NCBI GenBank assembly: GCA_905178155.1
Contig: CAJINV010000002.1
Span: 4,955,709-5,019,708, forward strand
Reading direction: 5' to 3'
DNA length: 64,000 bases
Source: Amoebophrya sp. A120
Lineage: Eukaryota; Protista; Dinoflagellata
In this document: positions 1 through 64,000 of the stretch, in pieces
How the letters are laid out: each line of letters starts with the position of its first letter
Numbering within the stretch: position 1 is the stretch's first letter
The notes under the pieces: generated by a model
Told to the model about the DNA's origin: nothing
The model's database searches: none
Seen by the model: only the letters and a program-made list of their open reading frames with translations
Translations under genes and position numbers: made by a program

Positions 1-3000
1 AATGAAAACAAATCCGTCCTCGTCTGGAGCACCAGCTTGTCTTGTTTCATCTCTCACTCGACCCGTGTTTGTCGCGACATGATCAACATCCGAGGGCCTG
101 CTTGAAGATGATGTCGCCAGGAACGACGAGGAGGGGCTCTGCTTGGGCCCGCCAACACCCGCCAAAACCGCACCGTTTCCCGTGGCGTTCAAATGCACGG
201 TGGGGTCCACCTCGGCGGTTCTGTCTTGCAACAGGTCCGACAGCCACTTTTCTTTCGCGGTTTCAGGAATGGTGGGGTTCGTGATCGGTTTCCCGACGCC
301 GATTTCCAGTGCTGGATTTGGATTTTCATCCGGTGCTGCAGTCGGCTGCCGCTCGTGGTCCCTCGCCGCCTGCAAATTTTCCCAGTGCGCTTGTCTCGCT
401 GTTTCCAACGCCTTCTGCTGCGCTTTTTCTTTCGCGAGCTGCCGTGCGCGGAGCTGCGATTGCTCCTCCGCGACACCATTCTGTTCCGCTGCGTCCTGTT
501 CTCTCTGCTGCCGCTGTTGCTGCTGCAGCAGGATGTGCTGCTTCAGTTTTTCCTGCATCAGCTGCTGCCTCTCAAGCTGGAGTTGCTGCATTTTTTCCTT
601 GTCTGCGTGGTTCATCTGCATGACAAAGGGATCATCCACAAGCGAGGACTGCTGTAGCCCCGATTCTCGTTGTTGCTCGTGGTTAGAAGTGGCAGAGAGT
701 CCAAGGAATTGTTTTGCTCCTTCTGGAGGCGTTACATACGACGAAAAAGATGTCGCGCTGCCTCGGAGCAGCGAAGAGGGATCTTCATCCCCCAAGGCCA
801 ATAGCTCGCTCTTGTTTTCTTCCGCATCAGCTGCAGCTGTGGTGGCTCGGGCCTGCTGTAGCTGCTGGAGTTGCTGCGCGGCTTGTAACTTTTCCCCTTG
901 CCGCAGCGGGTGCTGCAGCTTTTGCTGTCGCAGCATCTTTTTCAGGTAAGTCGTGCTGTAGCCCGGGTACTGTTCGTGGAGCGCTTGCAGCTGCTGCTGT
1001 TGCTGCGTCGACTGCGCCTCCTGCTGGGCCGCTTCTTGTCGCTCCTGTGCACCGCTTATCACTTTTTCATCTCCGCCACCGAATCGCTGATCTTTCGGAA
1101 CGGCCCCTTCCGGCAAAAGTTCCGTGTCGGCCAAGGGCGGGGTTTGGGGGAAGTCTTCTCGTTCTTCCGCCTGACTGTCATCATGATGCCCCAGCAAAGG
1201 CGTAGTTTGCGCCGGGTCTACTGTGTGTGCTCGTTCGAACGGCGTCACGTGCCGTTCCGCGGCTTGCTGCGCAATCGCGTCTCTCGCGCGTCCTTGCTCC
1301 GCGAGTGCAGCCTGCGCGATGGCTGCCCGCAACGGGTAAGAGCCCTCTCCACCTGGAGCTGGAATCTGCATAGTCTTCTCGTCCGCTGCAGTCGCTGCTT
1401 GGGAGCTGACGCCATGATGCTGCGTAGGGTCGCTGTGGCTCGGGCTCGCGTTCGTGGCGTCGTTGAGCGGGTCGGCGCCGGGCCTGGGGTGCAGTTGCGC
1501 GGCAGCCGGGAGGCCGAAGATTTTTTGCGGGTGGGCTTGTTGGTATTCTTGCAGCTCATCTACTTCCGCTGCAGGCACAGTTCGTTGACCTACTCCGGCC
1601 GCCGCAGCGTCTGCACGTCCACTCGCGTTCTCGTCCACTGCCGTTTGAATCTGTTGCAGAATTGCGTCCGCCTCCTTCTGCGCAGCTCTCTCCGCTTCCG
1701 CCCGCTCCGCCTCTTCCTGCTCCTGCTGGCGCTTCCACTCTGCTTCTGCCTCTTGCCTTTCTTGTTCCCGCTGCGCTCCTTCCTCCTTCAACTTTTGTAG
1801 CTTTTCTTGCTCCAGTCGATTCTCCTCCCCTACCTTCTTCCCGTTCTGCGCGGCCACCAAAGCCTCCCGCTTTCCCGCGGCGGAATTGCGCAGCCGCGCT
1901 TTGTCTTCTTCCTCTCGTTGGTGGGCGTCCTGCTTTTCCTTCGCGCGGACCCGCTCCTGCGCCTGCCCCGCTTTCCGCTTCTGGTGCAACTTACTCCCCA
2001 AGTAAAGCGCCCCGCTCCCGAGCGCAGTTTGAATCGCGTGATTCCGCATATCCACGTTGTACTGGTCCACGTCGTGCTTGTGAATCTTCTCCGCCTGCTC
2101 CTGCACCACTTTCCAGTCATGCATGTCCATTATACCATCCTTGCCTGCAAATTTTTTGAACTCCTTATCCTGTGTAAAAACGTCCCCAGCCCAGGGTTGT
2201 CATTTTCAAAGGCCAAGGGCAGGGCGTCCCCAAGAAAATTCTTGTTGTCATGCAATAAAGGGTGCCCACCCCAGAGTTGTCATACAAATTAATTTGCATG
2301 CTTCTCATGTTTCTCATGCGGAGCCACATGAGAAGCCTTTTCTTGTCGTGTTGTGGAATTTGTGAAACTGAAACCGACCGAAACCACAAACGCGCCTTGC
2401 ATGCGATGCTCAAATCAAAACGATATGCTAGATGTGCCAATGCAATGTTGCTGCACTAGCTAAACAGGATTAAATTACGAGGCCACGCTTGTCATGCGCA
2501 ATACCCAAAGCTGATTGATTTGTCTAGCAGCTTTCCCATCTTGATTCTGGGGTGGGGACGTTTTTCCTCAGGATACTCGTCTTCTTGGATGTCATCATCG
2601 TTGTCCGTGTCGAGCACCTATGCATTGCAAATATGTCTGGGTCGGGAAAGTTATGTATGCTGGAAGTGAATGATATGCGCACTGCAATACGCAGCCAAAG
2701 AACATGACAAAGTTTTGGGCTGCCGTGTCTTCCGTATCCCGCTCCCGCATGACAAACTGCGTTTTTGCGTGACACGTAAGCGGGCCTCTTCGTCCACACG
2801 CATCACGAAGTTTCGCGTCATGTCAGATATGCGCGAGGACAAATCTAGCAATCTTCCAGACCCAAACATATTTGCAGTTGATAGCACCCGCCACAGGTCG
2901 GAACCGACTTCCGGCCGGAGCCAGCCAAAGTTACGAAACTTTTCATAGCTGACGGTGCGAGCGTCCGCTGCTCTCAGATCCTGCGCGCTCACATGCTCCG

Positions 3001-5814
3001 CGATGTGGTCTGAATCTTTTTCGTTGACAATCCCATCATTGTTTATCCTGTGTAAAAACGTCCCCACCCCATAGTCATGATGGGGGCTTTTTACTACGCA
3101 AATCCGCAAGAATTGGGCGTTGCGCATGACACAATTCTGCTCGCAGTATCGTCGTGTTTAGCCTGCGCAGTCGCATCACAAATTGATCGCATTAATCTGA
3201 TTCCAGCATGACAAACTCTCAGATAGCATGAAAAAAGTAGAACGTCTGAGGTTTGTTGATTTGCGTGACAACTTTGGGGTGGGGACGTTTTTACTTGGGA
3301 TAATGTTTGTATCCAAGTTATCTTGGACCCGACTCGCCTTCTCCAGTTCTTTCGTGTCCAGCATGTGGTCGTGGTCTTTGTCAGCAAGCGCGAGTTCGTT
3401 GTCATCCACCTTCCCATTCCCGTCCATGTCCAGCTGGTCCGTCAATGGGGATGTGCTAGGGCCTTGCGCCAGTGCCTTGTGGATGTCGTCCATTGACTGT
3501 TCGTGGTTCAGAGCATCCAGGATCTTCTCGTTCTTCATGGCAACCACGTCCGTTTTGTCAAATTCCCCGTCGTTATTGGTGTCGAGCTTGGCCATCATGT
3601 CGTCGCTGTCTGTGAGCCCCAGTGCTTTCAATTGGCTGGGCATCAGCGCGGCCTTCCGCAGCTCGTCTTTGTCGACTTTGTCATTGTGGTCCTTGTCCAA
3701 AGCCTCAATCGCATCGATGGCGTCTTCCCGGTTTTGGTGATGCTGCGCTAGCCTTTCAATCTCCTTCAGAAACTCATTCCGCTCATCGGGATCCGTCGGA
3801 ACTTGATCGCGCGCGTCGAATGTTTTGTCGTGGTTGGTGTCCAGGATTCCCGTGATGAAATGTTGGTCGTCTTGGGCGTCTCTGCTTAAAATCCTCTCCT
3901 GCTTGTCCTCGTCGAACGAACTGAACCGCTGCACCGTTTATCAAATGCAAATATGTCTGGGTCTGGAAATTTGCGATGCTGGGCGGCGTATCATGAGGAG
4001 GCCACAAATGCTGGCCCAGCATGACAAGTTTTTGAGCTTCTAGGTGTTGCCTATTCTGCATGACACACTGCGTTTCTGCATGACAGAAAAATGGGGCTCT
4101 TGGGTAAAATGCATGACAGATTTAAGAGTCATGCCAGACAGGCATGACAAACATACACTCTTCCAGACCCAGACCACGTATTTGCACTTGATACCGCTTC
4201 GAACCGGTTCTCCATGATCCTCTGCTGGTGCAAGAACTCATCTTCATCGACCCTGCCGTCGTGGTTAGTGTCCACAGCGTCAAAGTCAGCTTTGCTAACT
4301 GCCCCGTCACCGTTCGTGTCAAAGATCGAAATTGGGTAGTCGCCATCGGCATCCCACTTGACTCCCTCCACTCCTTCCTCTTCCTGCTGCGCAGAAAGAA
4401 AGGAATCGTAGAAAGTGTCCCAGGCTGAGTGCAACCCATCGGGGTCCAGCGGATCTTCCTTCTGCCAACCCGGATCCATGGCCCCCAAAAAATGGTTTTC
4501 GGCCATCTCCTTCCCCTCTTCGGTCTGGTCTGTCGGCTCGAACGGCAGCTGCGGGTCCCAGTGTGAGAGCACTTCCGGCACGTGGATGTGTTCAAACGGA
4601 TTTCGAATAAAACGTTTGTTCCTCTCGACGCTCGTCTTCTGCACTAGAGACGAGCTTCTACTTCTTCTATCAGACGAGTTTGGAGGCTGCGCCCGTGTTG
4701 AAGATGTGACAACTGGTTGTACAGGAGCGCCGTTGCTTGATGTTGTACTCGGGGCGGCGCCGTGGTCCTCCTCGTGGTTTTCTATTTTTTCTTCTTTTCT
4801 TGCATTATTATCACTGCCTCCCACGTCGATGTGGCGGTCCGTGTCAAAATCCTCTTCCTCTTTTCCCACCACTACCGCGAAGCAGAGTTTGGACAAAAAG
4901 GTGTTGGAGAGGACAAGAAGCACGAGAAGAGCCCCCGTAAACGTGCAACCGCTAGTACCTGAAGCGGGTTTTGGTGTCGCAGTCGTGCTCGAGCTGCTTT
5001 GCTTTCCCACAGAAGGCCTGCCCTGGAACGAAGTCAAAGTTGCACAGCTTAGTTGGTGCTGCTCGACATCAGAAGATGTCCCTTTCTTCCTTCTCCTTGT
5101 TCTGCAAATGAACAAGTCCTTCTTCAACTGCTGCTCTGCTACCTCCCCGGTCGATGAAGTCCCGGCGGCCCGCGGCTTCGTAGTTTTCCGCGTTACAGAA
5201 GCTGTAATATCCCGGAGAGGGTCCTCAGCGCAAAACGGAAACCGTGGTGGTGTGGCCGACGTGTTCTTGTACTTTTCCATGCTTAGCAGTTTTATGCGAC
5301 GGGAGCAAGAATAAACTAAGACTGGTCGTTCTTGTGGTCTCGACGTGCAGCACGAGAGACGAGTATGCCGCGTGGTGTAGCCATTACCGCGCAGCGTGGT
5401 CATGGAGTAGTTCTTCTTTTTCCTCATGTAGCAGTTTCCACACGCGGAGGACTGCTGGGACAGGGACGACATCAAAGAGTTTGACTTGTCTTGACCTTCC
5501 GTCGAGTTGATGTAATTGCAGATCATGCGGCTTCTACAACAAGATGAAGAACTTCTCCCAAGGACAACTGGAATGGCCCCTCGTCGTGGCTCCTGCAGGT
5601 TCTTGCTCAAAGATGAACCATCGTGTTTTACTTGTGTCACTGCTGAAAATGACGTGGCGCAGCTGCAGCTCGACGAGGAGGGCGCACTGGATGAAGAAAA
5701 AGAGGCCTTGACATTATTTGGCCAGCAGATCATGGTCGGTGACATGCTCCTGGGACCACAGAGTGCCACTTCGTCGTCACGGTCTACCCAACTGCGGGGT
5801 CTAAGCTCCACCAT
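1..5814 (-). CDS. Large multi-EF-hand Ca2+-binding protein with a hydrophobic signal/TM segment and C-terminal coiled coil; 4 introners; runs off the left edge
   Basis: ORFs 4129-5862, 3176-3934 and 2651-3127 plus an open frame from 2165 to 1 join in frame once the elements are removed. About 9 EF-hand loops (DTNGDGAVSKAD, DTNHDGRVDEDE, DMDGNGKVDDNE, rebuilt DTNNDGIVNEKD, DTDNDDDIQEDE). Start ATG 5814 is uncertain. Confidence 0.75.
2166..2575. mobile_element. TIR introner, family B
   Basis: TATCCTGTGTAAAAACGTCCCC...GGGGACGTTTTTCCTCAGGATA; 5-bp duplication ctcct/ctcgt; removal gives ...QEDE-FKKF. Confidence 0.9.
2619..2883. mobile_element. TIR introner, family A
   Basis: TATGCATTGCAAATATGTCTGGGTC...GACCCAAACATATTTGCAGTTGATA; TSD gcacc/gcacc; GT-AG reading is possible for this one. 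Confidence 0.9.
3044..3302. mobile_element. TIR introner, family B
   Basis: Family B TIRs; TSD ttgtt/atgtt; removal rebuilds the EF-hand loop DTNNDGIVNEKD. Confidence 0.9.
3939..4193. mobile_element. TIR introner, family A
   Basis: TATCAAATGCAAATATGTCTGGGTCTGGAA...TTCCAGACCCAGACCACGTATTTGCACTTGATA; TSD ccgtt/ccgct; joins FEAV-QRF. Confidence 0.9.
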
Positions 5815-5949
5815 TTTTTCTTGTACACTGAGATGTACGCTGAGATGAATCGTCGATTTCAATCTTGATTGAGATTGACATGCTCACACTTGTCCTTAAT
5901 AAAATTCGGATGTCATGGGAAGAAGTCGAAGTGAACGTGAGACTTGAAT

Positions 5950-5974
5950 CTTCAGCCAGTAAAATGGCTACGGT
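5950..5974 (-). other. Degenerate dinoflagellate spliced-leader (DinoSL) relic
   Basis: Minus strand ACCGTAGCCATTTTACTGGCTGAAG versus DinoSL DCCGTAGCCATTTTGGCTCAAG; about 140 bp upstream of the EF-hand gene start. Confidence 0.7.
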
Positions 5975-7125
5975 CACATACATAGTGCAAGTTTTCGCGT
6001 CACATACTCGTACAACGCCGGACTCGCTTCGGCCAAACAACACCTCCTGTTCGAAAGAGTTATCACTCACTGCTCACGAACGACGGTACGAGCCCGAGAC
6101 CTCCTCAAAAATCCCTAAGTGACTCCCAGAAAAGTCTGACCACGTGTTTGCTTTGTTGGCACAACGAGAAAAAGAAGAACGCCATTCAAGTCACAATTCT
6201 TCAGAAGACAGCACGGCGGGTCTGCGGCTGCAACGCCGAGAATGGATGTTGCTTGACTTCTTCGTAGAAAAAGACTTTGTCAAAGATGTACATTTTTGAA
6301 ATATTTTCTCCTGATCAGGACCTCGCGACTTCACCTTCAAGATGGTAGACTACCACCGTGAATCCAACTCTGCCACAATTAATCTCCCTGAAGATGATCT
6401 TGCAAGAGAAACTATTCTTCTTGTAGCAACGCCGCACTGTATTCTTCAAAAAAGCATTCTTTCTATATTGGCGATGTTGCCACGACAAAGACAAAGAAAC
6501 AACGTTAAAACTATGTGTCTGCCTACTGCTGGCGCTGCTCCTGCTGCAGCACAGAAACAATAAGTAAATAATCAAACGCTGGTGCTGCACGGCCTCATGG
6601 AAGCAAAAAAGTTCGGGTTGCGAGAAAGAAGCGCACGGTAGCCAGTTGCGAGGTGCTGGAAAACGACCAACTCACTACTTTGTAGCTTTCAAGTAACTAA
6701 TCCTCTTCCGGCACCGGGCGCGCCGTACTTGTACTCGTCACACCAACGAAGACATCGCCGCTGCTACTCCCCCCCGTTGTAGTTCCAATCGGCCGCAGCA
6801 CTGGCCTCGTTGGCAGTGTCAAACCCTTCGGCGAGGCAGACGTCCCTATCAAGATGAAACATGTCCCCCCTCCCCGTATCCCAAACAAAATTTCCGACGC
6901 TGGAGGATCGATTTGCGTACACAGATACGGTCTGTCTTGCGGTAAGGAACTGTAGTCACATCATAATTCTCAGCCTGTTTAACAACGTACAGGTCAAATA
7001 AACACCTGCCCTATAAGCTTCCCAACGGCATGGCAAACGCCTCCGCAATGCGGGGCGCACCTCCGTACTGGACTTCTTGCAAGAATGTGATGACAAATCT
7101 GCATCACACATTTTCCTTTTGGGTA

Positions 7126-9130
7126 CTATGAGGTGGGACGTGGATTTTTCCTCACGATAGGCCCGGCTCCACCGCCACTGGTATCATTCACCGCAGAGGA
7201 GGAGGACGGGGTCGCCGGCAGCTGCCCAAACAGCGGCGGCGGTAGTGGGACAGAGGGTACAACTGCTTGTCGGCTTATTGCAGCTGTCGTGGGGAGCGGA
7301 CTGCTACTGTTAATCAACGTTGTGCTAGTTGTTGAAGGTCTCGACGGCGCTCCTCCGGTAAGTGATCCAGCACCTGCTGGTGCGCTATTGCTACTGCTAT
7401 AATTGTTCTCTCCCGATGATGTACCGGAGTTTTGCCTGCTGCTCGCACGCTGGGCCATTTCGTTTTCGACACAGTTTTTATTTGGCGTGTCATTTTCTGT
7501 ATTGTTTGCATTCTGCTCCCCAGGTGTACTCACCACGTTCAAGTCGCTTCTGCAAATTGGGCACGAACTCGCACGTTGGAACCACTCCGCGCAGCAGTCC
7601 TTGTGAAAAACGTGCTGGCACCGGGGGAGCTTGCAGAGCGTCACCGGTATCAAATGGAAAAAGCCCCCCACCCCATATCGAAAACGAAATTTGTGACGCT
7701 GTATTTGAGTACACAAATCGACTTGTAATGCTAGAAGGCGAAGAGCCGCAGTTGTGGCCTCGTTTGCAGGCAATTTGTCATGCTGTTTCCCACTTCCAGT
7801 TGCTTCCTGTCATGCTGAAGATGCAAGGCTTCCCCACGCCACCCAGCACTACAGTCCGCATCTTTTCCCTTCTAGCATGACAAAGCTGATCTGTGACTGC
7901 AAATCTGCATCACTGATTTCCGTTTTGATATGGGGAGGGGGCTTTTTTCACTTTGATAACCGGCTCCCCGTCTTCGAAGAGCTCGCCGCAACAGATCGCG
8001 CATGTGTGCCCGTCGTCGAGGGAATCCTGCGGATTTAATATTTAGATCACATTCATCATCATCATCATCATCATATTCAGACCTCATACTTGCTTCAAAA
8101 TCATTACGTCTAGCACTCAAGACAAAAAGGCTCTGTCGTCCTAGTTCTAGAAGTACATATTTATACCCATGAAGATGCGAAAAGGTATACAAAATATGCT
8201 CGACAGCACGACAACATCAACAAATACCGTAGCCGCGCTCCCCTTCAAGAACGCATCGCACTCTGCCTGCGTTGACACTAGCCTAGTTTCGATACTGTCC
8301 CACTGCGTTGCTTTCAAAGGATCGATGTTTGAGGGTGTGCCGCTATTGTTGCCGTACGCGGTTGTGGCAACAACATCTTCCTCCTCCAACAAATCCCGCA
8401 TGGCCGTGCGCATCGACTCGGCGGCGCGCAGGTGGTTTTGTAGTTCCCGGAGCAAAACCTCGATTCGCATCTCGCCCACCTGGATCCGCGGATGGCCGCG
8501 CCTGATAGTTGATAGTTGTCGTGTGGTTTCGGTTTGCGCATGATGTTGCGGACAAAAATTGTGTATTGTTTTCTACTGCGCATGACCAGCTTCAATTTGT
8601 ACTTGCCACTACTTAAAAATGCAAGCTTGTAGTAGTCCTCCCTTGATCAAAAAGCTCAAAATTTTTGAAGATCGTAACCGACTTCTACTATAGGTACTTA
8701 CTCACCTTCCCCCCAGGCTGTTCCCTCCCTCTTCCTCCTCGTCCCCCGCCGCTGCGTTAGTACTATTTCCTGCCGCCTGTCCGCGCTGCATTTGCGCCAG
8801 ATGGTGGACCGCCTGGAGGGCGTTGAGTAGTGGCATCGGTGGGGTTTCCTGCAACAACATGGTTCCCTCCTCCACGAACCCACCGCCGCAGCTGTTGCAC
8901 AGTCCCTGCTCATTCAGATTTACCGCCTGGTTGCACTCGTGACACCAGTGCGTCCCCCGCTGGCGGTTTGGACTCGGCGGGCCCCCGCCGAACCGGACGA
9001 CCTGCTGCAGCGCGTGGTGCGCCGCTGCTCGGTGCTGGTTGCTACCACGACGCGAGCGGCGGGAACTGGGGGAGGTCGGGACCGCCCGATTTTGGTCTTC
9101 CTCCCGATTGTTCGAGAGGCCGCCCCCCAT
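7126..9130 (-). CDS. RING-H2 E3 ubiquitin ligase with N-terminal zinc ribbon (RNF115/RNF126-like architecture)
   Basis: HWCHEC...CNSCGGGFVEE zinc ribbon. RING CAIC...CQHVFHKDC..W...SCPICR is rebuilt across introner 7648-7958. GT-AG introns at 8705-8502 and 8227-8027. Confidence 0.88.
7648..7958. mobile_element. TIR introner, family C
   Basis: TATCAAATGGAAAAAGCCCCCCACCCCATATC...GATATGGGGAGGGGGCTTTTTTCACTTTGATA; TSD accgg/accgg; splits the RING domain. Confidence 0.92.
8052..8074. repeat. (TCA)n microsatellite in a canonical intron
   Basis: ttcatcatcatcatcatcatcat. Confidence 0.8.
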
Positions 9131-34657: not shown

Positions 34658-34768
34658 CTACGGTGGAGCTGCAGAACGCATTGATTTCGGCGCAAGGAGC
34701 TCAATGGTGTCTATAATTCGTTGAAATTGCTGTGGCTCTAATTTTTTTTCGAAGAAGAAGTTTCGAAT

Positions 34769-34790
34769 CTTGAACTAAAATGGCTACAGG
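34769..34790 (-). other. Degenerate DinoSL relic
   Basis: Minus strand CCTGTAGCCATTTTAGTTCAAG versus DCCGTAGCCATTTTGGCTCAAG. Confidence 0.65.
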
Positions 34791-52534: not shown

Positions 52535-53490
52535 AAATGGATAGGAATACAGAATTATCCGTGTCCAAAACTACACTATGTTATTTCGTTCCTTTCGATC
52601 TTTGAGGATCACATGAATTCCAACTTCATCAATCACTTGCTTCGTCTGATACAACATCATAATCACGGAAACTACAGTATCGGCAGTATTGACCCCCGGC
52701 ACAGATGATCGCGAAATGAGAAAAGAGCGCTGCCGCAGCATATTAAAGCCATTCTCCGACGAGCCGGGCTTGCACACTCTTTTCAGGAAAACCTGAAGGC
52801 CACGATCCTTTTGCATCAAAACTGCCACGATAAGAATCCTTTCGCCGCGATGAACCAAGAACCGTAGAGAGAACCACAGTAGTCAGCGTAAAAACGACAC
52901 AGGAACAGACATTAACTCGCAGAGATAGAGAACCGTTTATTTTGCATCACGAAAGCAAGTTCTTACTACCGAAAATAATAGCCTTCATCATGATTTGGAC
53001 TCTATCTCTTGATCGGAAGTGGACCTCTTCCCTAATAGAGCTACCGCATCGAAGATGAACACTAGTATCGTTTATTGCCAAAAAAGTCAAAGGCAATTAC
53101 TAACCCGCCGGGCTGACCTAGCCAGCCCTGCCATGGCTTTCCTCTCATCTGAAATGTCGCTTAGTGCCTGCCGTAAAGAAGACTTTACGGATATGATCCT
53201 ATGGTAAAAAAATCGTCCTTCTGGAGAAAGGTTTTTCGTCGGGTCCTTGTAGGAAAAGGAGAATATGTCAAGGGAGTCGCATCATCAGGTGCGGACAAAG
53301 GACTAGTGTCGTTCAAAGTAATTGTGACTGTCGCCATCCTGAGGTTCTTGTTAAAAACATTCCGCGGCTATAATTCATAGCGATTGCAGTTCTGCAGTTC
53401 ATCCTCGCCACCACCATTTCTTGTCAGCAAACACTATGCCGAACAATCGAAAATGACAGAAAGCGCAGCTGCAATCGATCAGAATCACTA

Positions 53491-56400
53491 TCACCCCATC
53501 AGCGCCTCGCCCATGCGTATTTTGTCCCCCTCCTGCACTTTCCACTCGTACTCTTTGGGGCATTCGAACACCAACACCACCGTAGAGCCCATGCGGAAGC
53601 CCCCGACCAAATCGCCCTTGTTCAACTGCAGGATTTTCTCCCAGCTGCCCCACCGAGAGGAAAATTCCTTGCTGGTCACCATGTTGCTGATTTCGAACGG
53701 CGCGCCCACCCCGTCGTTCGTCCGCAAATTTTCGTCGAAGTCCAGCCAAATGCCCCCCACGTTGTAGGCCGCCACCGCCGTCATGTGCATCGAGAGCAGC
53801 TCGGAGGAGGTTTTCTTGTTTGACGTTCTCATATGGGGTTCTACTTTCGACGTTTGTGCACTGCTACTTGTCGAAGTTTCCGGCCTTGGATAGCATCCGG
53901 ATAACACAAGCCGCTCGTTGCAGGTGAAAAGATCCGGGATCCAGTCGGCGAACTGCGGGTTTACCGGGAACAACTCCCCCGGGTAGTGCCGCCCCACGTC
54001 AATCCGGAAGTTTTCCACCGGGGAGTGAAACCGGTGGTAGTCCCCCGGGGCTAGGTACAGAACGCAGTAGGCGAGTTTGACCCCGGAATCGACCTTGTTC
54101 TCCATCTGCTTCTGGAAAAACTCCTGCTCTTTCCGCAACTGCTGTTCCCTCTGCTTTTCCTCGAGAATTTCTTGCTCTTTCTGTTGGAACATTTCCTTGT
54201 GGAACTGCTCATCCTTCGGATTGTTGAAAAAAGCAGTAGAGCGAGATGTTGTTGCTGCTGTTGAGGACGAAGTAGAAGATGCTGCTATACTCACGTTGTC
54301 TCCTACTTCATCTCTTTTCCTCTTCACCGGCGAAAAGCTGCTGTTCCGTATGGATTGCAAAAATGTCTGGGTCTGGAAGATTCTGAGACATGTCATGCAC
54401 GGTTTGCATGAGCCATGAGGTCTGTGATGCATGCCCTAGCATCACAGGTTTTTTGAGAGATTCTTGATGCCTATTCCGCATGACAAATGCCCTCTCCGCG
54501 TGGCAAAAATTAGATTCCTTTTGCTGCTCATGCAACACAAATTTTTTAGACATCCAAATACAGCATCACAAGTTGCATTCTTCCAGACCTAGACATTTTT
54601 GCATTTGATATTCCGTCTTTGCCTCAAACTTGCCGTGGTCCCAGCGTGGTCTTCCTCGCTACTGCTGCTGTCGAGCGAGCTGGATTCCAGCGTGCTCACC
54701 GGCTCGGAACTGTCCTCGCTCCCGGTGGTTGTACTTGCCGCGGAGTTGGCCGGGCTCGGATTTTTCTGTCCACCCAGAGTACTAGTTGCACTAGCACTAC
54801 CCGGGGGCCCGGTCAGGTGGAGTTGCTTCGAGTTTTTCACGTGCTGGACCGCCGCCGCTTGCGACATCGAGGCCCACTGCTTCTCGCGGTGGGACACCTT
54901 CACGTTGGTTCCGGGCATGGTGGTCAGCGACTTTTCGTCCGTTTGTCGCTCCGCGAGGTCGTCTTGTTCGAACTTTTTGAACTCGATCTCGTTGTTCTCC
55001 ACCTGCTCCTTCGTAAAATTGTACTTCGGGGGGGTCTGCCGGATCACCCGTTGGCGCTTAAACTGCTTCTCCTCCTCGAGTATCAAATGCAAATATGTCT
55101 GGGTCTGGAAAATTGCGGGATTTGTCATGCTAGTCTGGCATGACTCTGCGCCCTGTATTGCGTGGCCACCAAAAGGTCCTCTTGCCTGTCATGCAAAAGC
55201 GCAGTTTCTCATGCGAAATACGCAGCACAGAAGCACGAAAAGACTTGTCATGCTTGGCGGCGCATTGCAGAGCAGTTACTGTTCACGGATTTGCATCACA
55301 AGTTTCCGGACCCAGACATAATTGCATTTGATATCGAGTAAAAGCTCATCCACGTTCTCCCTCGTCTCCTGCACCTCGAGCTTGTGCAGCCGCACGCCGC
55401 CGTGGACTGTGGTTAGGTTTTTGGAGGTAATTGATAAAGAATCATTTTTCTGGACGATGAGGATGTTAAAAATAAGTGGATCAAGAAATTTTTGGCGCGC
55501 CAATTCTTGTTGGAATTGTGCACTACGAGATTTTATTTGAGAAGAACCTGCAGTACTAGATCAAATGTAGTATCATAAATCTAAAAACTCAAAGAGTATC
55601 ATCTATACGTTCCTGATGGAACTCCCCTATTGCTTCCTCGCCATTCTTCCCGCCGATCCCGGTTAGCAGCATTTCCCGCTCCAAAATCGTGCGGTAGGGG
55701 TCCGTCCCCAGAAAGGCCGTGACGTCGTAACTCGCCCCCTTCACCTGGGGCACCCGCGCCTCCGATCCGGTAATCTCCCCCATCGCGACGAGTCGCCCGT
55801 CCACCGGAGAGGTGATCCCGCAATTTCTGTCGATTTTATGCACGTCGTCTTTCACGGACCGGGTGAAAAATTGTTGGAAACAGGTGTAGGTCTCCAGCGG
55901 GTACCGGCACTCCTCCATTTTCACGTCGTAAATCTGCCCAAAAAGCTGGTAGATCGGCGCGCGCCAGCTCGGGGGCAGCTCGATCTCCGTGATGAACTTC
56001 ATGATGCGCGACCGGGCGGGGCCTGGTCGAGTCATTTTGTCTAAATTTGATGCAGCTTCAATTTCGTTCATTTCGATGGCACCACGACGGGCAGCGCAGC
56101 AAAACTCAAAAGCAAAACTCAAAAGCAAAACTCAAAAGTGCTACCTCTGCTTGTGCTTCTCTGATCCATGACTCTCTACTCCAACTGCGCAAGTCACAAA
56201 TTTCTCTGTGCTGAGTAGTCCTAGTACGCGCATCGAATCAGAGTGAAAGAACTAAGGTTTGGAAATAAAGCGAAAAAAAAAACACACTACTTCTATACCA
56301 AAAAAGTGCCGCACCGCCCAGATGAGACTGGGATCTTCCAGCCTTGCCGGGTTCCCCGCCATGTTCACGGAGTGCACGAAGAGTTTGTGACTGTACCAGA

Positions 56401-57427
56401 GAAAAAAGGAAAACCCCGCCACAAAGACGCCGGCCCAGACGCGCGCCCCTGTAGATAAGACAGATTCGTTAGAGAATAAAAGTGAGAAGACAAGACTGGA
56501 GAGCGAAATCGTGAGCGGGATCACGATTCCGAAGGCGAACACCGCGGTCAGGACGATGAAGGAAGACGTGGTCAACACGATGAACGCCAGCGCCTTCAGA
56601 TCCGTCTTCCGCGCCGACTCGTCCGGGTGGTAATAGAATTCCGAGTCGGAGATGTCAGACTCCGACTCAATCGCGGTCTCTTCGACTTGTTGCAAAGAGT
56701 AGCTCTTCGTGGACACACTGTCGCTGTTTTCTTCCGCCGCGGAGTGGTAGTGAAGGGAACAACTGTGGTTTTCTGAGTTGTCGCAAGGTGAGGGGTAGGT
56801 GGAGGAAGAAATATTGTTGCTGTGCGAGATGACGTTGTCGCCGTCCTCTTGTATTGATAGTTCTCCACGATCTCCGCCCGAAGTCCCTGAAATCCTATCG
56901 CAGGACCCTAACGAGTTGCTGCTACCGCTGCTCGTCAAGACGGCGTTGTTTGTTGTGTGTATTATGTGGTGATGATGATGATGATGGTGGTGGTGCTTGT
57001 CCTTGGACGGCTGTGGACGGAAATTCCGCCACGACGGACGCCGCTTCGACGCCGTGGAGCTACTCGATGGAGTTGCAGTTGCGCCTGCATGGTGGTGCTG
57101 GTGTGCTGTTACGACCTGCGGAGGTTGTACAACTCCTGTAGTACTACACAACGGTTTATTTCCTGATGGCACCACCACCGCCAGAGATCCAGACTCGTCG
57201 GGCGAACTGCAGCGGCTACTTGGTAACATTGCTGTGCTGGTGTAGTTACTCGCGGCGGCATTTTTAGTTGTATTTCCCCCGGTGCAGCATGATGTTAGTT
57301 GTTGCGCGTGTAGTTCATCTTGATGGCAGCCATGTTCTGCAAAAGCTGCACTAGAACTGGCGCATTTGCTGGTTTTGGTCTCCTCCGCTGCGGTCGGCTT
57401 CTCCAGCAGAGGGCTTCTGTATGTCAT
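53491..57427 (-). CDS. PSD: Phosphatidylserine decarboxylase proenzyme with a long N-terminal extension and TM segments
   Basis: FQQFFTRSVK, SPVDG, QVKGASY, YLAPGDYHRFHSP, NERLVL, VAAYNVGGI, GGFRMGSTVVLVFE (GST self-cleavage motif); 2 introners plus probable canonical introns. Confidence 0.92.
54349..54610. mobile_element. TIR introner, family A (262 bp)
   Basis: Family A TIRs; TSD ttccg/ttccg. Confidence 0.92.
55081..55333. mobile_element. TIR introner, family A
   Basis: Family A TIRs; TSD tcgag/tcgag; joins ELLL-EEEK. Confidence 0.92.
56099..56137. repeat. 13-bp tandem repeat x3 (GCAAAACTCAAAA) in a probable PSD intron
   Basis: gcaaaactcaaaa gcaaaactcaaaa gcaaaactcaaaa. Confidence 0.8.
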
Positions 57428-58849
57428 TTTCCTGCTGCCCGATTTAGAAAGGGGAAGCCTCTAGTGATCTTCTAGTATGGTAAAAATATCAAATGAAGCA
57501 GTAAGCGCGAAGATCAAACAACAAACACGGCATCAAACACCAGCAGGCCCTTGTAGATCTTGACTCCGAGGGCGAGAAAGACCACAACTTAGTTAGTAGT
57601 CCACAACGCCGACAGAATCCGATCCGGACTTTCAAGGGCTGCTGGTGGATCCGCGCACGCGCTTCGCTTCCTTATGAATGCCTATCTTAAAATTTCATAG
57701 CTAAGTACTACGTAGTGAGTATCTACAAACTTCCTCGGCCTGGAATCGTGCTAGTGGTTAAAGTCTGAATGTTGTTGTGCATATACTTATGCCTATGCGC
57801 GTGTGCGTGGTCGTGCGAATAATAAGTGGAGCAAAACTGTTTTAACCACTGCGGCGTATAACTAAACTTTTTGAAAATTTCATGCGAAAAGATGGGCGCC
57901 GCGGTGCATCAAAAAGTCCTCGATAGAACGGATGCACCCGCCTATCTATTCACTTCTACTCTATGCGTGAAGTTTTACAAACAAAATAATTCGTGCAATA
58001 TGTTATGTTGCGTAATAGAAATCTACTACATGTAATACGATGTTTACGGGCGTAGCAAAATTAGGGCCTGTGAGTAGGGAAAAAACGTGAAAGAAAAACG
58101 CATCGAAATCTTTCTCACGACCGCTTGCAGACAGTACGCGCTGCTGGGCGCGCGCCGAAACGCAAGGTGAGAGAGAAAAAATGCGGGAGAGAAAAAAAGC
58201 ATGTGGATTGAGACCGAAGCTTTCTTCTCTACTCTACCGACTGTCTTTTCTATTATTTCATCCGGAACATAATTTTTCAAGTTCTTTTGCACAGATTTTC
58301 ATTGCAGCTTATTATTGTGATGGACGTAATTTATTTGCACGATATGAGCCTGGGCATGTGTTGTACGAACCGATCTTTTTGTACGATACTTGTGCAGTAC
58401 TGTCTTTACTACGTTTTGGTCATTTTCATCTTGTCAGACCTTCTGCATTTGGATCAACGATTTAAGGTAGTACGGACAGCTAGGCAGTTGCACTCGACCA
58501 AAATCGAGTCATATGGGTAGTAGGAGTGGCTAGAATCATGCATGAATGCATACTTATTTTGTGCACTACAGGCTCGTCTACAGCTATCATAAGTCGTCGG
58601 CAATTGAAGCTAGAGTGAGCGAGACAACTTGTCCATAATAATCGTCGCTGTGAAGAATTGTACTTGAGAGGACTTGAGCCAAATGCAACAAACAAAACAT
58701 GCGCAGCGATTGCCAAGAAGCCAGCGGCTCATCATAGCACTCTAGAACTGCTGAATCACGTACCATCATATCACCAACCAGCATTCTACGACTCAGCACG
58801 CAGAGCAGAAACTACATATTGATCGAAACCGTAAAAAAACAGCAGCAGC

Positions 58850-59916
58850 CTATATAAATTCAATACAGTAGACCCGTCCCTTCCAGACGTCGTAGCGTTC
58901 GCTGTTGTATCAACTGCAAATATGTCTGGGTCTGCAAGATTCCGGGATTTGTGATGCATATTTTGTATGAGCCATGATGCATGTGATGCATGATCTAGCA
59001 TCACAGATTTTTAGAGGCCTTCCTGATGCCTATTCCGCGTGAGAGAGGCCCTATCCGCGTAACACAAACTGGACTCCTGTTGTTGGTCACGCAATACAGA
59101 TTTTTTTGGAATCCAAAGACAGCATGACAAGTTGCAATCTTCCAGACCCAGACACTTTTGCAATTCATATGTTGTAGCTCCGGTATTTGGCGGGCGGAAT
59201 GTAGGTCGGCGTGTGCGGGACTGGTAGAATGGTCTCCCGTTTTTTGCTATCCTGTGCAAAAGTATCGTGCTCTTAGTAATCGCAGTCATGCATTACAAAT
59301 CTTCATCTCAAGGTAAAACAGCATGACAAATTCCATTTGTCATGCTGAGCTAATTTGTCATGCGATTGATACTAGTACGATACTTTTGCAGTTCATATTT
59401 CCCCGTCGGAATGTCCTCCTTGCCTGCTCCTTTCGGTGTCAATTCATTCTTCTCCTGCTCGGACAAAACTAGGTCCGACCGATCGGCAGCAGCTCCTGCC
59501 CCGCCGCCATTTTTCAGGATATTCTTCCGAACCAGCAACATCGACCCAAGCGGCGCTTCCGGCGTGATTCCCGGAATCGCCCCGGGCTGCGCCTGAAACG
59601 CAAAGCATCGAGACGACGATATGGTTGTTGACGCGGGACGACTTGTAAAGCTTGCTAATCCCCCGCCGTAGTAATTCTCTTGTTGCCGAAAAACTTGTAC
59701 TGGCCGCACAAACCGCGCCGTAGAACTGCTGCTGCCCCCGATCTGCAAGTTTGGGGGACTTTTTACTACACTTGTAGCACTTCTTTTCCTTAAAACCGAC
59801 AACGCCTGCATGGAGGTGTAACCTTCCTGACAAATGACCTTCCGCGTCGAGGTAGTTCCACAGGTCCTCCCCGCGGCGGCGCGCGAGTGCAATCGCCCCA
59901 AGGATTTTTGCAGCAT
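58850..59916 (-). CDS. Hypothetical protein with an Arg/Ser-rich, mitochondrial-presequence-like N-terminus; 2 introners
   Basis: After removal the C-terminus reads DIPTGKKRETILPVPHTPTYIPPAKYRSYNSERYDVWKGRVYCIEFI followed by a stop. Confidence 0.65.
58908..59169. mobile_element. TIR introner, family A (262 bp)
   Basis: Family A TIRs; TSD tgttg/tgttg. Confidence 0.92.
59248..59397. mobile_element. TIR introner, family H (150 bp)
   Basis: TATCCTGTGCAAAAGTATCGTGCT...AGTACGATACTTTTGCAGTTCATA; TSD tttgc/tttcc. Confidence 0.85.
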
Positions 59917-60004
59917 GGTGCGACTATATCAAGCAACACAGCTGCACCACCCGCCTTGTATCTATAACAGGCTCTGCTCTACTGCGCCTCTTAACCACCT
60001 GTGA

Positions 60005-60409
60005 CTACTCCAGCTGAAACTTCCCCGCATACAGCTTTTCAAACTCCGCGAAACGTAGGTGAGCAGGCTCGTTAAAATACATTTTTTCCGGATTCGTTTT
60101 TTTACCCTTCGTCTTCGCTCCGGCGTCCGCAGAATTATCCAGCTGCTCCTTCGCAAAGCTGAGCATGCGACTTGCGAATTCCTCTGCGCTGTTGTTATCG
60201 GTGATGGACGAAGACGAAAACCCGATCTGGTACTGCTTCAAGGCCGCGGCCAAAGACTCGGCAGTTATCAAGGGTATGCCCTCTTGGGCAGAGACAAGAG
60301 CATTATCCGTAACCTTCTCAGTCTTCAACTTCTCGAAGATAAACTCCGCCGCGGCGGTGGTCTCCTGCGCAGCAGCGTCGGCTTTGCTCTTCGTCGCTTT
60401 GCTCGTCAT
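60005..60409 (-). CDS. Small hypothetical protein, possibly a degenerate EF-hand pair
   Basis: 134-aa ATG ORF; LITAESLAAALKQY...LRFAEFEKLY resembles calmodulin-lobe helices. Confidence 0.55.
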   Translation of the reverse strand: MTSKATKSKADAAAQETTAAAEFIFEKLKTEKVTDNALVSAQEGIPLITAESLAAALKQYQIGFSSSSITDNNSAEEFASRMLSFAKEQLDNSADAGAKTKGKKTNPEKMYFNEPAHLRFAEFEKLYAGKFQLE

Positions 60410-61750
60410 TGTACAGCTGACATTGTGCAGTGGAGGTCGGATAGGGTTGTTGGTTCTCAGGCTAAAAACGCTACTCCATAAAACGCGGAAAAATATGAAA
60501 GAAAGTGTTAAAGGCTATACTGATTTGTTCCTTGCTAATAACGGAGATAAACACTGAATAAACGTGTCAGACTTCTTCTTGTTGGACGAGGTCGTAAGTC
60601 ACTTGAGCAACTTTATTTTCCTGATGGTCTCAACATCCAAGCAAAAAGAAATAGCGGCCTGTGAGTAGTTGAGCTGCAACACTTTTATGTCCCTTGTACC
60701 ACAATAAACATCCAAACGACTTCAAGATATGGCTGGCCGCAGAAAAAACACATCATTACTCGGGAAGTATCTATAATTTCATCCTTCTTTCACAGCAAAA
60801 TTTCATCAACATCTGATGGCAGCAACAGCGACAGAGTTCAAATTTGTTGTTCAGAAGCGGCCACAGTCGATGAACATCAAAGCGACCTTTTGCCGCAAGA
60901 ATCTGCCAGGCCTGTCTCGCAACCGGGGCGCCTGCTCCCGTCGTGGGTTTTATCGTTTTCCAAGTGCAAGCTTCTTCTCAGAGCAAAAACTGTCAGCGCT
61001 GTTTTTCGTGGACCATGGTGGAATGTTCGTGTACATGTTTCAAGAGTTGTTTTCTGTAGAATGTGAATGTGTGGTGTGTGTCTAATACTACGCTGCGATG
61101 ATGATGAATTAGCGTGGTTTATTCTCTTTGCTTTGCCAGTGACGAGATTCACTGGAATAAATTGTGTTGAATTATACTAAGTAATAGCGGTAGTACGACG
61201 CTGACAAGTACGAAGCAATTTCAACTGTCTAGAACCTCTTTTTCTGCTGATTTTTTCAGCATGATTTCTACAACTTACTAGGAGTATGATATGCATAGGA
61301 TCCTGTTTAATTAGACGTGTGTTCTTGAAGAACAACACGGATACAAAGGCCGCTTTGAATTAAGACGAGAAATGGTCAGAGTGTTAACTAGTACCCAAAA
61401 TCCATTCAGTCAACATTAGTGTCCAGTCAACGAGCGCCTCGCACAGAGCAACAGCAACTATTGAATTCCTATCGCTAGGTTTACTGATTTTCTATGCCGA
61501 GAAGCGACATAATGACTTTCATCAAACCACGCGCACTATAACGGCGTTAATTAGGTGTATACTCTGCGCAAACTCGGGAAAAGAAGGCAGTATCCGAAGA
61601 CGTAGACGAAGCAAAACTATGCATGAAAGAAATCTTCTGTGTCAAAGTTCATCCCAAATATAACGTCAATAGAAAACTAGGTATGATCGACATCCTGTAC
61701 AACTTACATGTTTTAAAATTTTTTCACTGCTTCCATCGAACTGCCTTCTC

Positions 61751-64000
61751 TCACGCTTCTGTACGCCCATCCCGCTCTTCCTCGAAGTAATCCGGACGAA
61801 AGAGCCCGGAGCTGGAAGCAGCTGCGAGTTCTTTCCCACCTCTCCGCACCGGCGCTTCCACCAAACCCGCTGCCACAGCAGTCTTTCTACCCATGGGGGT
61901 AAAACTGTAAAACCGCATGAAGTTCAACGGCGCGGCGATCCGCTTCCGTTTTGCGAGCGACCGCGCGTGGACCTGACCTAATAGTTTGACCGGCGTGTCG
62001 GACTTCACGGCCATAGACATGTCGTTGTGAAGCCCCTCATTCCCCCGGATGGAAAACTTCACGGTCTTTCCCTTGTCGGCAACCTCGATCGACATGCCCT
62101 GCTCGCTCAGCATTTTTGCCCCGGACGCGGGGAAGAACTCCTTTTGTCCCTTCACAACCGGCTGGATCGACTCGAGGAGAAAGCCTTGCTTGTTGGCCAT
62201 ATTCGGGTCGGTCTCGTCGGCCTCGAAATCAGGATCAATAACCCAGGACTATCAAATGTAAAAATGTCTGGGTCTGGAAGGTTGGAACTTGTGATGCTAA
62301 CTTTGAACTCTAAAAAAATCTGTATTGCATGACCAGCAAGAGGAGTCTAGTTTGTGCTACGCGGGGAGGGAATTTCTCATGCGGAATAGGCATCAGGAAG
62401 CCGTCTAAAAATCTGTGATGCTAGGTCGTGCATTACAGACATCCTGAGTCATGCAAAATATGCATGACAAACCCTGCAACATTCCAGACCCAGACATTTT
62501 TACATTTGATAAGGACAGTTGATAGTCGATTCGCTCCATCCGGACCATTTCCTGTTGCCCAGCATGATGATGATGATCTCTTTCACCAGCTCGGGAAGAA
62601 GCAACAGATGAGGAAACCGGTTTTTGCGACACCCGAATCCCGGTGAACTTTTTCGGCAAGAGATCCGAAACGCGCTCGCTATTCGGTGCGTACATCATGT
62701 TGACAATCGGGAGAAGAAATTTGTTCTTCTGGTTCGATTTGACCTGTCCGTTGTCGAACATCTCCCAGCACATCCGCTCCAGCCGGCGATAGTCGAAATC
62801 AACATTATTCTCGATTTTCCGTAACAAATCCAGCGATTGCTGCTCAGTCTTCGGAAAGAGCGTGAACTGCACCTGCAGTAATTCCTTCCCTTGTAACCCC
62901 TGGAACTGGTTTTCCGCCAAATTCGCGACTGCCACGTCCGGAAACCCGGCGCCGCCACCGGCACCCGCGGCGTCCGCGCGGTCTTCGGGCACGTGGTTCG
63001 GGAAGAAAAGCGGGGCGAGCTCCGGCAGATCGAGGTAGGCCATCTGCTTCTCTTTGTTTTCTCGTTTGTGGGACTGCAAAACGGCGGAATTTGTGCTCTC
63101 CGGCTCGTCGCTTTTACTCCCAGCGGTAGAAGTAGAGGACAACTGGTGCAACTTCTTGTCAAACAGGTTGAAGTTCTGCAGCAACATCCGTTCCACCACA
63201 CTGTACTGCTGCCACCCTTTCCCCGCAAAGTCCATCGAGAAGTGGATCCAGGAGGGGTAGTACCGAGTTGCCGAATCACGAAGCACCATCGCGTTCTGGC
63301 GGACCACCGGCGACCCATTCGGCACTAGAGCGACTGCGCGGGGCAGTTTCGTGATCAGGAAGTTGTTCATCCAATCGTAGGTGTCCTTTCTGGTCGGATA
63401 GTCGTTCTCCCAATCAAATTTCAACAGTCGCCCGCTCTGTTGGTCGCGCTGCTCAGGGTTGCGGATGCTCAGCCAGTAGGAATTTTCCTGCTTGTAGTCC
63501 TCGCTGTCTCCCATATCGTCCTTGACCAAGTCCATCGCGCGGTAGTCGTGAACCAAAAACGGGTGCAGGAACTTGTCCTGCAGGGAGGAGTCGGCGAGTT
63601 GCGGGATGAGTGCGTCTTTATTCACCTGCTGGAACTCTTTGGACAACCAGGTTAAATCCGTGTTCCCGCCGTTTGATAAGAACTGCGACGCTTTGTCTTG
63701 TCGTTTTTGCGCTACGGTCTTCGGCCGGCGCTTCGGCGGGGGGCCCAGGGGGGCGGCACCGCGCTGAACAGGGTCGTCTACTAAAGCGCGGTCTGGCTGT
63801 AATTGAACTTGTCCTCCTGCGGCCGCTCGCTCGGCCGCCCGCTGCTCCGCGAGCATCTCCGCGTTGCTGCGCGCGCCCCGGAACAAAACCTGCGGTCGGA
63901 CCGCATCCGCGGGGGTGGGCGGGAAACTCGACGGCGCTCGGGTGCTGATGTCCGAGAGCCGAGACACCTGGATCGAGGGGGTTTGCAGATAAGACATGGC
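61751..64000 (-). CDS. Hypothetical protein with 1 introner; may begin at ATG 63997 or beyond the right edge
   Basis: ORF 62405-63997 joins ORF 61751-62200 in frame (YQLS-WVIDPDFEADETDPNMANK). Confidence 0.7.
62250..62511. mobile_element. TIR introner, family A (262 bp; inverted relative to 22237 and 58908)
   Basis: Family A TIRs; TSD aggac/aggac. Confidence 0.93.

Follow-up and report, generated by a model that had tools for sequence, protein, structure and literature searches.

The question raised by this locus is how short inverted-repeat elements lodged inside exons come to be absent from the cDNA of the genes that carry them. The class to which these elements belong is published, and the choices for its route of removal can now be narrowed to a symmetric cut-and-join process or a much altered spliceosome, because one family is skipped both ways, the ends show no 5'/3' difference and the gap is always the element plus 5 nt. 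We favour the former, to which we assign a probability of about 0.5: a non-spliceosomal chemistry in which a system recognises both like ends, cuts, and joins the exons, rather than GT-AG splicing.

Inverted-repeat elements in the window

We use "the window" for the whole 64,000-nucleotide stretch of Amoebophrya sp. A120 DNA that was analysed. A relaxed scan of it recovered 27 elements between 2166 and 62511, 150-410 bp in length, with TAT...ATA inverted-repeat ends and 5-bp direct repeats that are perfect in 19 and carry one mismatch in 8. Element plus repeat is not a multiple of three in length in 14 of the 27. All of these figures reproduce those of an initial annotation made from the sequence alone. 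The same scan of five block shuffles returned 0, 0, 0, 1 and 0 elements, and under a stricter rule (at least 18 of 30 arm matches and a repeat of at least 4/5) 19 of 20 shuffles gave none and the other gave one. A weaker 28th element (6847-7159) brings the window to 19 perfect and 9 one-mismatch repeats. The exact repeat is 5 bp long in 19 of the 28, with matches of 3, 4 or 6-9 bp in none. TAT is missing at one end in two elements (12029-12254 and 29616-29866); the motif TAT + 7 nt + AAA is present at 48 of 56 window ends and 301 of 388 ends overall, and none starts with TTA. The elements, with the match between their repeat copies, and the associated features are as follows.

2166..2575, TIR element, 410 bp, EF-hand gene; repeat 4/5
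2619..2883, TIR element, 265 bp, GT-AG reading possible; repeat 5/5
3044..3302, TIR element, 259 bp, in EF-hand-like loop (by eye); repeat 4/5
3939..4193, TIR element, 255 bp, one arm with indel; repeat 4/5
6847..7159, weaker 28th TIR element, 313 bp, interior related to 30749 and 7648; repeat 4/5
7648..7958, TIR element, 311 bp, splits RING-H2 finger, Pfam profile 15-44 downstream; repeat 5/5
12029..12254, TIR element, 226 bp, TAC replaces TAT at one end; repeat 5/5
12307..12496, TIR element, 190 bp; repeat 4/5
20412..20680, TIR element, 269 bp, MIF4G-domain gene, upstream of domain; repeat 5/5
22237..22498, TIR element, 262-bp family, GT-AG reading possible; repeat 4/5
28498..28764, TIR element, 267 bp; repeat 5/5
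29263..29524, TIR element, 262-bp family; repeat 5/5
29616..29866, TIR element, 251 bp, single terminal base altered; repeat 4/5
30101..30353, TIR element, 253 bp; repeat 5/5
30749..31072, TIR element, 324 bp; repeat 5/5
40568..40779, TIR element, 212 bp; repeat 5/5
41278..41539, TIR element, 262-bp family; repeat 5/5
43754..44059, TIR element, 306 bp, gene without RNA coverage; repeat 4/5
44176..44454, TIR element, 279 bp; repeat 5/5
44563..44942, TIR element, 380 bp; repeat 5/5
48305..48566, TIR element, 262-bp family, GC-AG reading possible; repeat 5/5
48626..48877, TIR element, 252 bp, within LRR-like motif (by eye); repeat 5/5
51452..51784, TIR element, 333 bp, GT-AG reading possible; repeat 5/5
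54349..54610, TIR element, 262-bp family, PSD gene, 267 nt skipped in RNA contig; repeat 5/5
55081..55333, TIR element, 253 bp, in PSD gene, record coordinates imply a 258-nt skip; repeat 5/5
58908..59169, TIR element, 262-bp family, stop 16 codons after; repeat 5/5
59248..59397, TIR element, 150-bp family, gene without RNA coverage; repeat 4/5
62250..62511, TIR element, 262-bp family, inverted relative to 54349, 267-nt skip in RNA; repeat 5/5
53158..58064, minus strand, phosphatidylserine decarboxylase (PSD) transcript, in which two TIR introns accompany two canonical ones
55407..55608, minus strand, canonical GT-AG intron, PSD gene, position worked out from RNA contig coordinates
56023..56298, minus strand, canonical GT-AG intron, PSD gene, missing from RNA contig
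60948..63200, minus strand, expressed gene with element 62250, poly(A) near 60948 (50 reads with T run)

Long frames take up 71% of the strand after cleaning, and all 28 window elements sit inside them (p = 6e-5 in a partly circular test); no remnants were found elsewhere in the window, within which the copies are confined to exons. Deleting each element with one repeat leaves minus-strand stop-free frames of 1558, 1975, 762, 1761, 871, 1219, 514 and 660 codons, each crossing one to five elements, whilst retention breaks the frame at 28 of 28 window elements and at 191 of the 194 oriented elements introduced below. By itself this test sets the deletion size only modulo 3, and it is uninformative for 5 of 27 elements (12307, 28498, 58908, 59248 and 7648, the last having a short upstream exon). 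Of 31 frames, 6 gave Pfam matches, to EF-hand, RING-H2, MIF4G and phosphatidylserine decarboxylase domains. Among the motifs named in the initial annotation, EF-hand and RING-H2 are therefore recognised by Pfam; the LRR was recognised by eye only, with no Pfam match in the frames. Among the conserved genes it named, PSD has a Pfam match, whilst NOM1 is not confirmed: Pfam gives MIF4G alone and a PDB search returned no match. The Pfam-matched stretches of the MIF4G and PSD genes do not themselves contain the elements.

Elements are skipped in cDNA and kept in DNA-like contigs

RNA data came from runs chosen by label or guessed to be RNA, all of them cDNA. Every element covered by them (3 of 3, of 11 in the stretch compared) had been lost precisely together with one repeat, so that RNA support extends to 3 of the 28 window elements, and each gap equals the element plus 5 nt, as had been predicted. 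The joint 62244->62512 (a 267 nt gap) is carried by 187 raw X10 reads with 79 distinct starts, X10 depth is zero at the four listed sites within the element, and the same skip of 62250-62511 recurs in one X9 read and one X3 contig. At 54349, two pieces of X3 record 10 that end at 54343 and start at 54611 are contiguous in the record, with 267 nt absent; the skip at 55081 is deduced from 73 record letters matching exon 55334-55406, which adjoins the intron at 55407-55608. Because this record also lacks the two GT-AG introns of the PSD gene, it represents spliced RNA. None of the three gaps allows a GT-AG or GC-AG reading, and the possibility that nearby GT-AG sites are used instead is therefore contradicted at these elements. 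Elements 54349 and 62250 are members of one family in opposite orientations, and both are skipped. The interiors of other copies are read through by RNA contigs (records of 145 and 188 nt).

In DNA-like data the picture is different. The run X1 has an even depth of 42-60 in unique bins; its contigs continue out of unique sequence and into the arms, and none contains the 62244/62512 joint. This bears on the question that the initial annotation had left between RNA splicing and DNA excision of the kind seen for ciliate internal eliminated sequences (IESs): the retention of elements in DNA-like contigs speaks against the latter, and no contig with the empty site at 62250 was seen in this one run.

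Related copies and their ends

Further copies came from 163 loci (546 kb) in one public assembly, retrieved with one arm pattern, which matched no stretch in viral contigs or prokaryote genomes. These loci have element families in common with the window (best identities 66-96%) and no orthologous stretch. Of 372 unique elements there, 73 had flanks that were too short and 133 had an ambiguous strand or frame; with these set aside, the remaining 166 and the 28 from the window form an oriented set of 194 in 23 families. Near-full-length matches in the related loci exist for 22 of the 27 window elements tested. Families occur in both orientations (24/12, 10/11, 6/9 and 5/3), and an exact 5-bp repeat flanks 237 of 364 short arm pairs, repeats of 3, 4 or 6-9 bp flanking at most 7.

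Across the 194 copies the 5' and 3' arms are alike at all 26 positions (chi-square p >= 0.107), a small asymmetry being a first base of T in 194 of 194 against a last base of A in 188 of 194 (Fisher p = 0.03, uncorrected). No end dinucleotide is common to the elements at any of six possible cut registers. Possible GT-AG readings number 16, compared with 11.9 in shuffles (P = 0.11), and GT/GC-AG readings 19, compared with 17.4 by chance; identification as U2 spliceosomal introns by such ends was rejected, given this chance rate and 0 of 3 RNA-covered elements. By strand there are 16 sense and 6 antisense GT-AG readings.

When 27 elements were folded, 23 had arms that are predicted to pair (mean P >= 0.67). 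Arm positions 4-7 are paired in only 81-141 of 194, and in the RNA-supported element 54349 the terminal pairs have a predicted probability of 0.01. There is no sign of selection for sense-strand RNA pairing among 169 elements, in which G.U mismatches number 50 and 84 against 60 and 76 for A.C.

Terminal inverted repeats, a fixed target-site duplication (TSD), non-coding interiors, many copies and both orientations are the features of a MITE or non-autonomous TIR transposon, and the MITE-like origin proposed earlier fits them. No transposase was found in the window or the 163 related loci, the five frames of a 1104-bp element (L024:505-1608) have no Pfam match, and loci L032 and L066 hold no nested elements.

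Repeat mismatches

A mismatched repeat is present in roughly one in five copies. The 47 mismatches in 194 elements are distributed by position as 15, 12, 6, 8 and 6 (p = 0.15, no positional difference), and imperfect repeats are not commoner among older-looking copies (13/69 vs 30/125). Third codon positions hold 27 of them (27/343 vs 20/627, p = 0.002), and 25 of 47 are synonymous, only mildly above a model with one free copy (p = 0.003-0.09 across the constraints assumed). The mismatches do not reveal which copy stays. The phase bias of the repeat (45/55/94) was considered as a splice signal and is not counted as one, since a symmetric target-site model, built from the same sites, reproduces it (p = 0.38).

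How might the elements be removed?

That these are RNA-level introns of the A120 type we hold with high confidence, and short non-coding inverted-repeat elements of this kind are likely transposon-derived introns. We infer, with the initial annotation, a dedicated removal system. A cut-and-paste or integrase-like transposase would have inserted the element, giving the 5-bp target duplication, and the element would then be transcribed through in either orientation, as seen for one pair. The arms, if they fold as predicted, would bring together ends that each carry the observed TAT-N7-AAA signature, and cuts falling at both repeat copies or inside them, followed by ligation, would restore the exon; the outcome is seen in cDNA for three elements, the chemistry and cut position being presumed. 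The fixed 5-bp repeat, the skipping of both orientations, the indistinguishable arms and the exon-only copies favour such a symmetric process over an adapted spliceosome, although the end symmetry may merely be a legacy of the transposon.

That spliceosome would be of U2 type, with paired arms replacing U1 and the splice-site dinucleotides ahead of lariat chemistry, and we regard it as a serious contender that nonetheless falls short of even odds. The text of Farhat 2021 (PMC7789003) reports nearly all spliceosome proteins in A120, with U2, U4 and U6 present and U1 snRNA not detected in A25 or A120, the last of these being an observation that also counts for symmetric cut-and-join; the PSD transcript has canonical introns spliced as well, the GT-AG readings show a weak sense excess (16 vs 6) with an invariant first T, and Fritillaria borealis offers a precedent (PMC11282704). 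It sits poorly with six registers that yield no common dinucleotide, with skipping in both orientations and with arms that are alike in 194 copies. Counted against symmetric cut-and-join, in turn, were the cDNA-only RNA evidence at just 3 of 28 elements, the lack of any sign of pairing selection, the incomplete predicted pairing of the arms, the small 5'/3' asymmetries, the spliceosome proteins and the Fritillaria precedent.

The remaining explanations are far less probable. Elements could stay in the mRNA, with reverse transcriptase jumping the hairpin that the repeats enclose; the genes would then be either dead or read by hopping ribosomes. Repeat-flanked hairpins are a textbook cause of such skips and the element geometry fits known template-switch artefacts (PMC4176328); neither 'template switch' nor 'RT-PCR' occurs in the main text of Farhat 2021 (PMC7789003), and the 5-bp repeat always contains one whole in-frame codon, in which mismatches are somewhat rarer (22/582 vs 25/388, p = 0.07). 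We nevertheless consider this improbable, given that the skip at 62250 is apparently complete (187 joint reads against zero depth inside), that RNA contigs traverse other interiors, that frames run long and unbroken with the elements taken out, and that 13 of 194 elements have a non-synonymous change in the repeat's sole whole codon. IES-like excision from DNA at some life stage is less probable still: the TIR and repeat anatomy resembles that of DNA transposon excision, and with a single DNA-like run, contigs that lose rare forms and some X1 joints uncounted, its traces could be missed, but X1 contigs run unbroken from repeat into arm and none has the empty site. We know of no separate germline nucleus in dinoflagellates, and without one excision would mean permanent loss. 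Least credible of all is ordinary GT-AG splicing at sites in or near the repeats, since the window elements readable as GT-AG (3/28) or GC-AG (1/28) occur at the chance rate and the three RNA-covered gaps permit neither.

Returning to the favoured cut-and-join process, we tentatively suggest, at somewhat below even odds, that A120 possesses a second, spliceosome-independent splicing system which would recognise symmetric ends in RNA in either orientation and cut and ligate within the 5-bp duplication, possibly in several registers, rendering tens of thousands of exonic DNA transposons cost-free. If true, such a motif-independent, orientation-blind intron remover would give genomes a new way of gaining introns throughout, and might be put to use as an RNA tool.

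Comparison with known systems

A literature search, mostly outside subscription journals, found no published resolution of the removal mechanism. The nonconventional introns of euglenids (PMC11282704) similarly have paired TIR ends, TSD-like repeats and non-canonical junctions, with a MITE origin proposed and a mechanism unknown; those introns have a pyrimidine|purine junction consensus, leave as circles and belong to an unrelated lineage. The introns of Fritillaria borealis (PMC11282704) are likewise transposon-derived, with TIRs, TSDs and non-GT-AG ends, but AG-AC and AG-AT ends dominate there and they are reported spliceosome substrates, whereas here no end dinucleotide is common. Among integrase-like DNA transposons, IS3EU/GingerRoot (PMC10045372) has termini that begin with TA, as here; membership was rejected because its required TSD is 6 bp and the repeat here is 5 bp, never 6. 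Ginger2 (PMC10045372), with a TSD of 4-5 bp, agrees in this respect, and A120 introner family 38 (PMC12130899) comprises TIR elements with LTR-integrase-like ORFs.

The nearest system is the introners of A120 itself. The initial annotation was right that introners were known in Amoebophrya with no established mechanism, and the text of Farhat 2021 (PMC7789003) goes further, describing TAT + 7 nt + AAA ends, direct repeats of 3-5 nt and RNA support whilst leaving the removal mechanism open. Inverted repeats with that motif, direct repeats at the borders and non-canonical ends are common to both sets, as are a length close to the mean of 240 nt, genes that share one orientation, GT-AG introns alongside, copies grouped in families, and absence from RNA with borders that are not GT-AG. 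The end motif, the shared gene orientation and the mixture of introns are in keeping with A120 as the host. The A25 introners described there begin with TTA, a start seen at none of the window or related ends. Where that text gives repeats of 3-5 nt with uncertain borders, the repeat here is fixed at 5 bp; removal in both orientations, arm symmetry and exon-only placement are additions to it, figures S19-S25 aside. No difference was found that excludes membership, and the elements are very probably of the published introner class of Amoebophrya A120.

Elements in the window and in related loci

Three scans of increasing tolerance over the 64-kb window recovered exactly the set described in the initial annotation, namely 27 elements of 150-410 bp spanning 2166-62511, with a 5-bp direct repeat that is perfect in 19/27 and carries one mismatch in 8/27. 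The same scanning of shuffled windows yields only 0-1 elements. Individual features named below are:

6847-7159: weaker 28th element
7648-7958: element interrupting a RING finger
53158-58064, minus strand: phosphatidylserine decarboxylase (PSD) gene
54349-54610 and 55081-55333: elements in the PSD gene
62250-62511: element of the same 262-bp family as 54349-54610

The exact repeat length is 5 bp in 19/28 elements and 3, 4 or 6-9 bp in none of the 28. Each of the 28 would introduce an in-frame stop if kept, and the element plus one repeat copy (element+5) has a non-3n length in 14/27, the count reported before. Deleting element+5 connects frames on the minus strand, the longest reaching 1975 codons. 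Long frames make up 71% of the cleaned strand and contain all 28 elements (p = 6e-5, a partly circular value), and no remnants were found elsewhere in the window; such exon-only placement is expected if copies persist, or insert, where removal works. Every long frame in the window (1-64000), like each of the two observed transcripts, reads from the minus strand, forming a co-oriented gene block.

Pfam domains were found in 6 of 31 frames (EF-hand, RING-H2, MIF4G and PS decarboxylase). Among the motifs said to be rebuilt by removal, RING-H2 is recovered by Pfam, while the EF-hand loop and LRR junctions seem correct by eye only; of the conserved genes said to be hit, PS decarboxylase stands and NOM1 found no confirmation in Pfam or PDB. 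The RING gene also holds a GT...AG intron-like stretch (~8502-8742, minus strand) with two GCATGA hexamers, for which blastn gives no similarity to the elements.

The elements, 7.6 kb in total, contain 82 copies of an 8-bp motif, GCAT[C/G]ACA, against 4 in the remaining 56 kb; it is present in 27/28 elements, across families, and is a possible transposase or removal-factor site. Very short exons separate some neighbouring elements (2576-2618, 38 nt net; 48567-48625; 59170-59247; 29525-29615), some of which have like arms, and wrong-partner arm pairing would skip these exons.

One arm pattern retrieved 167 stretches from a metagenome collection, representing 163 loci of a single public assembly, with 0 matches in viral and 0 in prokaryote contigs. 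These loci contain 372 unique elements of families common to the window, and the 5-bp repeat is exact in 237/364 short arm pairs. Strand was assigned by a window-trained codon model to 166/372 (206 were dropped), giving 194 oriented elements with the window's 28. Long elements that share these ends and have perfect repeats also occur (L024:505-1608, 1104 bp; L032:632-1465, 834 bp; L066:3862-4492, 631 bp); the frames of the first contain no Pfam domain, and no elements are nested in the other two.

RNA and DNA evidence

Sequencing runs were compared over 43300-63200, which holds 11 elements; RNA covers two genes and three elements, and the other eight, including both with a mismatched repeat, lie outside that coverage. 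Element 62250-62511 is skipped by 267 nt (262+5) in 187 reads of RNA run X10, with 79 starts, and X10 depth is zero at four listed sites within it; one X9 read and one X3 contig show the same skip. An X3 contig of the PSD gene lacks 267 nt at 54349-54610 and, as deduced from record coordinates, 258 nt at 55081-55333. Since it also lacks two GT-AG introns (55407-55608 and 56023-56298), this contig represents spliced RNA. The gap thus equals element+5 in 3/3 cases, as the initial annotation had predicted.

That annotation had also considered the use of nearby GT-AG sites, but no GT-AG or GC-AG placement exists for any of the three gaps, leaving ordinary splicing the least probable explanation of all. 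Excision from DNA is scarcely more credible, because contigs of the DNA-like run X1 keep the elements, continuing from unique sequence across the repeat into the arms. The empty site 62244/62512 was seen in no X1 contig, although some joints are uncounted and contigs drop rare forms; X1 was classed as DNA because its depth is flat (42-60 across unique bins). Nuclear dualism is not known in dinoflagellates. It is improbable, if less so, that the elements are retained in RNA and skipped by reverse transcriptase; this reading has to be considered because hairpins between repeats are known to generate false junctions (PMC4176328), and because the evidence here, and apparently also that of Farhat et al. 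2021 (PMC7789003), is all cDNA. Removal very probably happens at the RNA level.

X9 reads of another locus retain the final 85 nt of a 262-family element (window equivalent 48482-48566), flanked by unrelated sequence on both sides (192 + 71 loose-end reads); this lone arm seems to escape removal. Over the same region, X3 includes RNA contigs from other element copies, including interiors of 145 and 188 nt; these could be element RNA that is unspliced, excised or retained, or else carried-over DNA.

Symmetry of the ends and the route of removal

Families contain both orientations relative to the transcript (24/12, 10/11, 6/9 and 5/3 among the 194 oriented elements), and RNA skips two members of a single family, 54349 and 62250, that lie in opposite orientations. 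The 5' and 3' arms differ at none of 26 positions, although the first base T is invariant (194/194) and the final A is found in 188/194. The number of possible GT-AG readings is that expected by chance (16 vs 11.9 with shuffled repeats), with fewer on the antisense strand (6). We propose, with a probability of roughly 0.5, a symmetric route in which insertions, probably made by a transposase, would be removed through endonuclease cleavage directed by the element ends, followed by ligation; the RtcB/Trl1 type is one type of ligase. An adapted spliceosome taking the elements out is a somewhat less probable, though substantial, alternative.

Arm pairing is predicted in 23/27 folded elements, and arm positions 1-3 and 11-13 are conserved, being paired in 184-190/194, positions 4-7 far less so (81-141/194). 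Arm mismatches show no preference for G.U over A.C, and the prediction leaves the terminal pairs of 54349 open, so there is no sign of selection for a perfect RNA stem; recognition of each end by its sequence fits equally well, as does mere transposon inheritance. Repeat mismatches are enriched at third codon positions (27/343 vs 20/627), with repeat position 1 contributing most of the tilt (13/94 vs 2/100, or 13 of its 15 mismatches). One possible reading, a lead only, is that both repeat copies partly reach mRNA; the tilt exceeds a one-free-copy model only mildly.

Comparison with known systems

Searching the literature, with subscription journals thinly covered, gave no paper resolving how introners are removed. 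IS3EU/GingerRoot transposons have TA-type ends and a 6-bp TSD, and Ginger2 a 4-5 bp TSD (PMC10045372); the window elements match neither in full. Amoebophrya introners have been grouped with the introns of Fritillaria, which are spliceosomal, and of euglenids, which are released as circles by an unknown mechanism (PMC11282704). A120 introners comprise diverse TIR and retro-elements, some TIR elements having integrase-like ORFs (PMC12130899). The inverted/direct-repeat introners that the initial annotation noted in Amoebophrya are already described as RNA-supported non-canonical introns with inverted repeats of 8-20 nt and direct repeats of 3-5 nt, with 29,850 repeated introner copies in A120 (PMC7789003); the account of them there compares them with MITEs, records U1 snRNA as undetected and gives the mechanism as unknown. 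Without settling it, our additions sharpen the question of removal chemistry and suggest direct tests. The A120 end motif of that study, TAT + 7 nt + AAA, is matched by 48/56 window ends, whereas the TTA start of A25 is found in 0/56; the window is thus most probably from Amoebophrya of the A120 type, and its elements belong to this published class.
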